From Thermoplasmatota archaeon (GTDB lineage: Archaea > Thermoplasmatota > JAKEGO01): a stretch of 64,000 nt of DNA. The stretch spans positions 32,001 to 96,000 of the forward strand of contig JANQNK010000001.1 of NCBI GenBank assembly GCA_028279595.1. Reading direction: 5' to 3'. Below the pieces are notes generated by a model that had not been told where the DNA came from, ran no database searches, and saw only the letters and a program-made list of their open reading frames with translations. Within the stretch, counting starts at the first letter, position 1, and each line of letters starts with the position of its first letter. Position numbers and translations under genes: made by a program. Below are positions 62,120 through 62,356 of this stretch, in pieces.

Positions 62120-62176
62120 CTCACTGTCCAATCTTTACTAGAATTGATATAAACCCCGAGAACAAAGGTGTGTTAA

Positions 62177-62356
62177 TCAAGAGAGTGCAAACTCTCCCGC
62201 CACCGAACGTGAGAGGTCACCCCAAGAAAGCTCTCTTGAGAAGCACAAAACGGGGATCGCGGTCATCGCCAGCCAATTCTTCATGGGCGACATTGGTCCC
62301 TCCGCGGTCCCCACACAATGTGCTGTGGTATTGTCATTCCCCAACGATACCTTTTT
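62177..62356 (+). ncRNA. Candidate structured non-coding RNA with pseudoknot (family not recognised)
   Basis: Upstream TATA (62144-62153), six stems with G-U pairs favouring the + strand, a loop-to-junction pseudoknot, and a T5 tract at the 3' end. Confidence 0.55.

Follow-up and report, generated by a model that had tools for sequence, protein, structure and literature searches.

A predicted family of structured small-RNA genes in a coral-associated archaeon and its suggested pairing with 16S rRNA

Introduction

Small RNAs which pair with ribosomal RNA without modifying it are known mainly from the eukaryotic U3, U14 and snR30. [quoted passage not shown] In the archaeon Methanosarcina mazei, sRNA162 masks ribosome-binding sites (RBS), which establishes this mode of action for archaeal sRNAs (PMC3510493).

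The predicted RNA presented here is encoded in a window of 64,000 nucleotides, contig C4:32001-96000 of a 2.29-Mb archaeal genome that is 86% complete. The host is a rare, coral-associated archaeon, and its class is represented in the collection by two other genomes (73% and 82% complete). The full RNA interval is spanned by one sequencing run alone, a coral metagenome, which is the probable source; among the runs listed none of RNA contained it. An initial annotation had proposed a novel pseudoknotted RNA at this position and suggested a stand-alone sRNA, a ribozyme or a leader of the gene starting at 62390. The stand-alone, promoter-driven structured non-coding RNA is supported; the ribozyme and the leader are not. 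Judged from sequence, the interval very probably is a real, undescribed and independently transcribed small-RNA gene of about 180 nt. We are confident that it belongs to a true family of structured small-RNA genes with five units in this archaeon.

The locus, its promoter and the predicted transcript

The RNA interval occupies a 270-nt gap between two co-directional ORFs of membrane type, neither of which is in a known family. The upstream ORF (61466..62119, + strand, 217 aa) encodes a probable secreted or membrane protein without a Pfam match. The downstream ORF (62390..62986, + strand, 198 aa) encodes a probable membrane protein for which no homolog was found; it is outside the RNA family. 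A coding reading of the interval itself was rejected, its ORFs being short and unshared. Nearby genes encode a DEAD-box helicase and a PurP-type protein (DUF1246/DUF1297 domains), and a low-GC island adjoins. The helicase (window 59881-61410), two genes upstream of the RNA, has a long basic C-terminal tail rich in His, Gly, Gln and Lys; it is absent from the other two RNA loci, B and C. The island (window 48000-60000, GC content 0.35-0.5 vs 0.58) codes for a DUF2299 protein and an ATPase similar to ORC/CDC6, and it has a 376-aa ORF whose C-terminus is rich in Cys.

The gene, denoted unit A, has an archaeal TATA box, GATATAAA, at 62146..62153 (+ strand), about 21-22 nt ahead of the first RNA base. 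By the TATA-to-start spacing rule for archaeal promoters, transcription should begin close to 62175, which is two bases ahead of the first helix. The 3' end was placed according to the U-tract, a run of five T at 62352-62356 (+ strand). Both the TATA box and the T-tract had been recognized in the initial annotation. The tract follows an 8-bp hairpin, and together they form the probable 3' end (62327..62356, + strand). This terminal hairpin exists only in unit A and is not conserved at loci B or C. The predicted small RNA thus extends from 62175 to 62357 on the + strand, about 183 nt, and is described by the covariance models R1-R3. Ahead of the TATA box a conserved element (62125..62143, + strand) consists of TGTCC-RR, a T-rich block and CTA-N-AA; from its sequence it is probably a regulator site plus a BRE. 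The initial annotation included neither this motif nor the paralogs, and the conserved words in the loops had escaped it as well.

The proposed stems all pair as drawn: the eight helices contain only Watson-Crick or G-U pairs. Folding of 62144-62356 yields a z-score of -3.77 for the + strand and of -0.77 for the - strand. For the predicted transcript, 62175-62357, the z-score is -4.70, and 0/200 shuffles folded as well. The predicted strand folds better than the opposite one in all five units of the family, clearly in A, C1 and C2, marginally in B1 and B2.

Five units with one structural plan

BLAST detects no relative. A covariance model built from the single sequence (R1) identified two paralogs in the same genome, B1 (contig C5:13972-14149, 68.7 bits) and C1 (contig C7:20912-21102, 37.7 bits). 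The three-sequence model R2 added B2 and C2 (28 and 18 bits), directly behind B1 and C1. Unit A stands alone and has a terminal hairpin of its own; the other four are two tandem pairs. Loci B and C are alignable over about 390 nt, from the promoter through the second unit. A/T-rich boxes are positioned 21-24 nt before the RNA in five of five units; since B2 and C2 thus have such boxes of their own at a similar distance, they may be separate genes.

The promoter motif of A, B1 and C1 begins exactly 50 nt before the RNA. When the genome was scanned with the motif built from these three sites, they ranked top, with a wide gap to the fourth. Weaker copies, with the spacing to a TATA box unchanged, are present at contigs C18:109839 (+), C3:17958 (-) and C11:190491 (-). 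They precede genes of probable secreted or membrane proteins, and a regulon is possible. A candidate RNA D (contig C19:77577-77830), upstream of a probable DNA glycosylase gene, has a promoter closely resembling the one at locus C; in outline it consists of two hairpins, with CACC in the loops. It was rejected as a sixth unit: R2 and R3 do not detect it, its z-score is -0.7, and its complementarity to rRNA does not exceed chance. It is possibly a distant relative of the family.

The conserved architecture is simple: a pair of helices with a short linker, each helix closing a loop of 39-48 nt, and the loops carry invariant words. Hairpin 1 (62177..62239, + strand) has a 10-bp helix, 62177-86/62230-39, which closes a 43-nt loop. 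In A, B1 and C1 all 10 pairs are retained, four of them with changes on both sides; in five units this number rises to six. Hairpin 2 (62252..62312, + strand) has an 11-bp helix, 62252-62/62302-12, closing a 39-nt loop. Again all 11 pairs are retained in A, B1 and C1, five with changes on both sides, and seven in five units. Across the five units the core helices are 98% and 100% paired (99% of cells), 13 of the 21 pairs are changed on both sides, and 0/500 shuffles reached such a covariation, for five related sequences in an alignment fitted to the model. This covariation was found among paralogs of the same genome.

Between the hairpins runs a conserved A/C-rich linker which ends in AAC (62240..62251, + strand). 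Its CA(C/A) part pairs with 62319-62324 in a short, weakly conserved helix. The motif UCACCCC, which in A is in loop 1 (62217..62223, + strand) and unpaired, is present in four of five units. The motif UGGUCCC (62294..62300, + strand) is present in all five, always in hairpin 2. A third shared loop word, AUCCGGA, occurs in three units. The two helices would appear to be a scaffold which displays the loops.

The inner stem and pseudoknot proposed for hairpin 2 (62266..62297, + strand) can be drawn in A only and are not conserved. Across A, B1 and C1 the two crossing stems of the pseudoknot are 53% (the inner stem) and 75% paired (62272-77/62292-97), with one pair changed on both sides, and the remaining inner stem is 60% paired. 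C1 is devoid of any 5+5 pseudoknot, and the one possible in B1 is in a different place and at chance level. A third linker of 1 nt spanning a 5-bp stem is unlike a classical H-type pseudoknot. The suggestion of a pseudoknotted self-cleaving ribozyme or a conformational switch drew on the two crossing stems in A; an equally long pseudoknot is possible in only 4% of shuffles of the 39-nt loop. No ribozyme family matches at E up to 10. The GNRA hairpin proposed as a switch is feasible on paper, but it is 5 kcal/mol above the ground fold and its GNRA loop is not retained by the paralogs. We consider a ribozyme or switch extremely improbable.

Searches beyond the genome

Rfam 15 covariance models gave no match over the interval (E up to 10) nor over the paralogs (E up to 5), in agreement with the original proposal of a novel RNA. 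The RNA also was said not to resemble tRNA, SRP RNA or RNase P RNA. Indeed, no match was obtained at the interval, including the RNase P and SRP models RF00373 and RF01857, and the canonical RNase P and SRP genes are elsewhere, on contigs C1 and C10. A BLAST-type search of 60 related genomes returned only chance matches of 15-30 nt. The covariance models R1, R2 and R3, run over 60, 149 and 149 genomes in overlapping samples of the phylum plus the two other genomes of the class, detected no homolog. Weak matches in genomes G034 and G082 were discarded; they sit in apparent coding DNA. Scanning genome, metagenome and viral collections for patterns yielded nothing, or matches without the helices and unscored by R2. 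One pattern match was to a palindromic element of about 100 bp in Vicinamibacterales genomes, repeated, sometimes 940 bp apart, and unrelated to the RNA. Literature searches found no description of such an RNA. The lineage is rare; hence absence elsewhere says little about the true range.

Mobile elements and the genes around the units

Four of the five units are on integrated mobile DNA. Locus C is inside a 14.5-kb provirus-like element (contig C7:7400-21945) bounded by direct repeats of the 3' end of tRNA-Pro. The element contains an integrase-like gene, a HerA/FtsK-like ATPase with few relatives and membrane proteins without family. Locus B is in a low-GC island (contig C5:1-30700) which ends at tRNA-Leu(CAA) and encodes an integrase-like protein and an Mrr_N protein. 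Mrr-type genes in this island probably number two, of which Pfam confirmed one; a SIR2-type defence cluster is probable as well.

Such surroundings evoke an RNA which binds a protein of the mobile element, as a decoy, an antitoxin or a packaging cofactor; the motifs then would be protein sites and the match to rRNA discussed below would be due to chance. The helix ends and the linker are conserved in sequence, not in pairing alone, and the motifs are shuffled between loops in B2 and C2, both of which agree with protein binding. However, no protein family is common to the neighbourhoods of A, B and C, where only weak ATPase and integrase likenesses are seen. Six contigs with relatives of the element's ATPase showed no RNA match, although these contigs are short and most hold little upstream DNA; in 400 genomes of the phylum and in viral contigs relatives of this ATPase were not encountered. 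Further, neither IS110 nor Nat10 nor a CRISPR array (crude repeat scan) was found in the 86% complete genome. We regard a protein-binding RNA as improbable.

Alternatively, the units might be signals in single-stranded DNA, i.e., origins of the second strand or hairpins for packaging in a rolling-circle element, of which A would be a stranded remnant. Locus C is intergenic in an att-bounded element and adjoins the ATPase, and the strand folds well as DNA, too (z -3.55). But a TATA box at the distance of a transcription start precedes every one of the five units, and A terminates in a hairpin plus U-tract. Moreover, nothing Rep-like was noticed at A or B, and a supposed Rep in the contig C7 element is unconfirmed. 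A DNA signal is very unlikely.

An attenuator or riboswitch in the leader of the downstream gene is rated marginally lower still. In A the hairpin plus U5 is located 33 nt before the ATG at 62390, and the last hairpin after unit C2 (contig C7:20720-20760, minus strand) covers the G-rich RBS and the start codon of the ATPase gene. Yet the downstream genes differ: in A it is an orphan membrane protein, in C the ATPase, and in B none follows within about 800 nt, a stretch without a credible ORF downstream of unit B2. No alternative fold is conserved and no Rfam riboswitch matches. Paralogs preceding unrelated genes or none are hard to reconcile with a leader for the 62390 gene, as once proposed.

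Complementarity to 16S rRNA

Three distinct 7-mers are common to at least three loops. All are antisense to the organism's own 16S rRNA, none is in sense. UGGUCCC and UCACCCC match 16S 647-653 and 623-629, sites which are 24 nt apart. We take these to be the 3' strand of helix 23 and the 690 loop, corresponding to E. coli about 712-718 and 688-694. Units A and C1 carry CGCCACC(G), which matches 16S 655-662; in C2 the match extends to 10 perfect pairs. In A the loop-1 segments at 62192..62205 (+ strand) are antisense to 16S 594-601 and 655-662, although a non-conserved inner stem occupies part of them, and UCGCCA at 62266-71 is antisense to 658-663. B2 has a match at 607-613, and further loop segments match 16S helices 22-23a. 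The target words for UCACCCC and for the helix 23a segment are kept in both sister genomes. The genes of 16S and 23S rRNA are not linked, and each has a TATA-like box of its own upstream (contigs C18:68542-70009; C11:199361-end and C3:1-430, the 23S gene being divided between two contig ends), which presumably fits Thermoplasmatota; a simple motif search of the genome revealed no 5S gene.

How unusual is this? That two such words fall within 40 nt on 16S has a letter-permutation p of 0.010. With UCACCCC fixed, 4/210 permutations of UGGUCCC land near it. Nine of ten loops match one 70-nt 16S window, which was equalled by 0/300 genome segments and 4/300 Markov rRNAs. For units A and B2 no rRNA window is better than this one, and A's coverage of it was reached by none of 777 intergenic control pieces. 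The best two-sided match of loops C1b, B2b and C2b falls at 16S 638-663, and for A2 this is nearly so. In hairpin 2 of C1 the sides of the loop would clamp 16S 645-662, leaving two C unpaired. In the genome as a whole the two target words occur together at 2 sites vs 1.9 expected, which is no excess; only one of these is non-self, namely the 16S gene.

The match to rRNA was a post hoc observation, and the paralogs do not count as independent. Masking of the two shared motifs leaves the 16S window only in the top 6%. When any window is allowed for A alone, 9-16% of control pieces equal its coverage, and B1 and C2 individually are unremarkable. G-rich rRNA readily offers matches to C-rich motifs; among the permutations of UCACCCC, 40% match 16S somewhere. 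The predicted folds mostly place the UGG of UGGUCCC in cis pairs. Taken together, the 16S match itself is suggestive, with a p of about 0.01-0.02 that was obtained post hoc. An origin of the units from rRNA fragments was dismissed, as whole-unit alignments to 16S and 23S were no better than those of shuffles.

The main competing explanation is a regulator of mRNAs in trans. Loops with CACC or UCACCCC would mimic the anti-Shine-Dalgarno tail and mask the RBS, and UGGUCCC would cover starts of the type GGGACC-AUG. GGTGA, the Shine-Dalgarno word of this genome, is enriched before starts (105 vs 30 in coding background), as is GGGGTGA (13 vs 1.8). Six of ten loops contain CACC. UCACCCC is antisense to the Shine-Dalgarno word GGGGUGA, a perfect anti-Shine-Dalgarno word, which in the predicted folds is unpaired in A and partly paired in B1 and C1. 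A few genes do have GGGACC directly before ATG. But GGGACC is not enriched at starts (18 vs 16), and both words are found in one start region only. RBS masking also leaves unexplained why the UGGUCCC site in 16S is beside the GGGGUGA site (the 4/210 above), and the pairing linker of sRNA162 varies more than any other part of that RNA, in contrast to the invariant motifs here. A regulator of mRNAs is unlikely on balance. As a minor alternative target, tRNA-Tyr (contig C4:163734-163840, minus strand) ends in GGGACCA, the exact complement of UGGUCCC.

Our preferred reading is a trans-acting RNA which pairs with the central domain of nascent 16S rRNA in a manner similar to snR30. We assign it a probability of roughly 0.38. 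Both sides of each loop pocket would pair with 16S helices 22, 23 and 23a (about E. coli 650-727). Much of the target stretch is paired in the mature subunit; hence binding would take place on nascent or unfolded pre-16S and would delay or steer the folding of the platform, as snR30 does on 18S rRNA. Helix 23 alone folds at -25 kcal/mol and each seed pairing contributes -10 to -16 kcal/mol, so invasion of the mature subunit is unlikely; several seeds acting together on nascent rRNA are plausible. Since the genes move with mobile elements, a modulation, i.e., slowing, of the assembly of the host small subunit for the benefit of the element may be the likeliest consequence. The more specific proposition, that RNAs of a provirus or island pair with the central domain of host 16S to steer or block small-subunit assembly, i.e., an snR30-like action outside eukaryotes, is doubtful at present.

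Implications

At the least, a structured RNA family supported by covariation is added to a barely sampled archaeal class, and integrated elements in this class carry small-RNA genes of their own under a shared promoter. If the pairing with 16S were true, small RNAs that pair with rRNA without modification would be extended to archaea. It would also suggest that mobile DNA may act on the ribosome assembly of its host through RNA alone.

Comparison with known RNA classes

The 7-nt UGGUCCC bulge resembles the UGGNACC of the T-box and could pair with a tRNA ACCA end. Unlike in a T-box, the motif is on the 3' side of the hairpin, and there is no stem I/specifier loop, downstream synthetase gene or Rfam match. 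A box C/D guide was dismissed because a C box (RUGAUGA) is in no unit and CUGA, the D box, is absent from A. An IS110 bridge RNA was likewise discarded: PF01548 was not found in the 86% complete genome, and the candidate guides are all antisense to one strand. A guide for Nat10 (ac4C) like snR4/snR45 was considered since the exposed bases are CCG; PF05127 (Nat10/TmcA) was not found in this genome of the same completeness.

With sRNA162 of M. mazei the RNA shares an intergenic position, a length of about 190 nt, an own promoter, stem-loops, a narrow taxonomic range and a C-rich single strand able to pair with an RBS (PMC3510493). It differs by its five paralogs, the invariant motifs inside large loops, the linkage to mobile elements and the lack of an outstanding mRNA target, as judged by word counts at start regions.

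Archaeal box H/ACA guide sRNAs have, like the units described here, a basal stem of about 10 bp and a two-sided pocket able to clamp rRNA (PMC7991803). ACA, AAA and AAA follow hairpin 2 of A, B1 and C1, respectively, there is no such box in B2 or C2, and Gar1 is encoded in the genome. However, a conserved K-turn or K-loop 5-6 nt above the pocket was not identified; the units have no conserved tandem G-A motif, C1 none at all. The predicted crossover is 19-20 nt from the box vs 14-16 in H/ACA guides, and the best two-sided matches leave CC or CCGG unpaired at 19 nt, no uridine. Matches that conform to the H/ACA rules are weak and differ between units. On these grounds, i.e., K-turn/K-loop, crossover and exposed uridine, membership in the H/ACA class was rejected.

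A further comparison is with snR30/U17. According to the best reading both would have conserved basal motifs in a large hairpin pocket and two nearby sites on small-subunit rRNA, and in both no uridine is positioned for modification. snR30/U17 is chromosomal and essential, a 600-nt H/ACA RNP that binds the eukaryote-specific ES6. The archaeal RNAs, on the other hand, are 150-190 nt long, multi-copy, on mobile DNA and without a consistent ACA box, and their target would be the universal helices 22-23a. Homology is not claimed; what the archaeal RNAs may have in common with snR30 is the mode of action.
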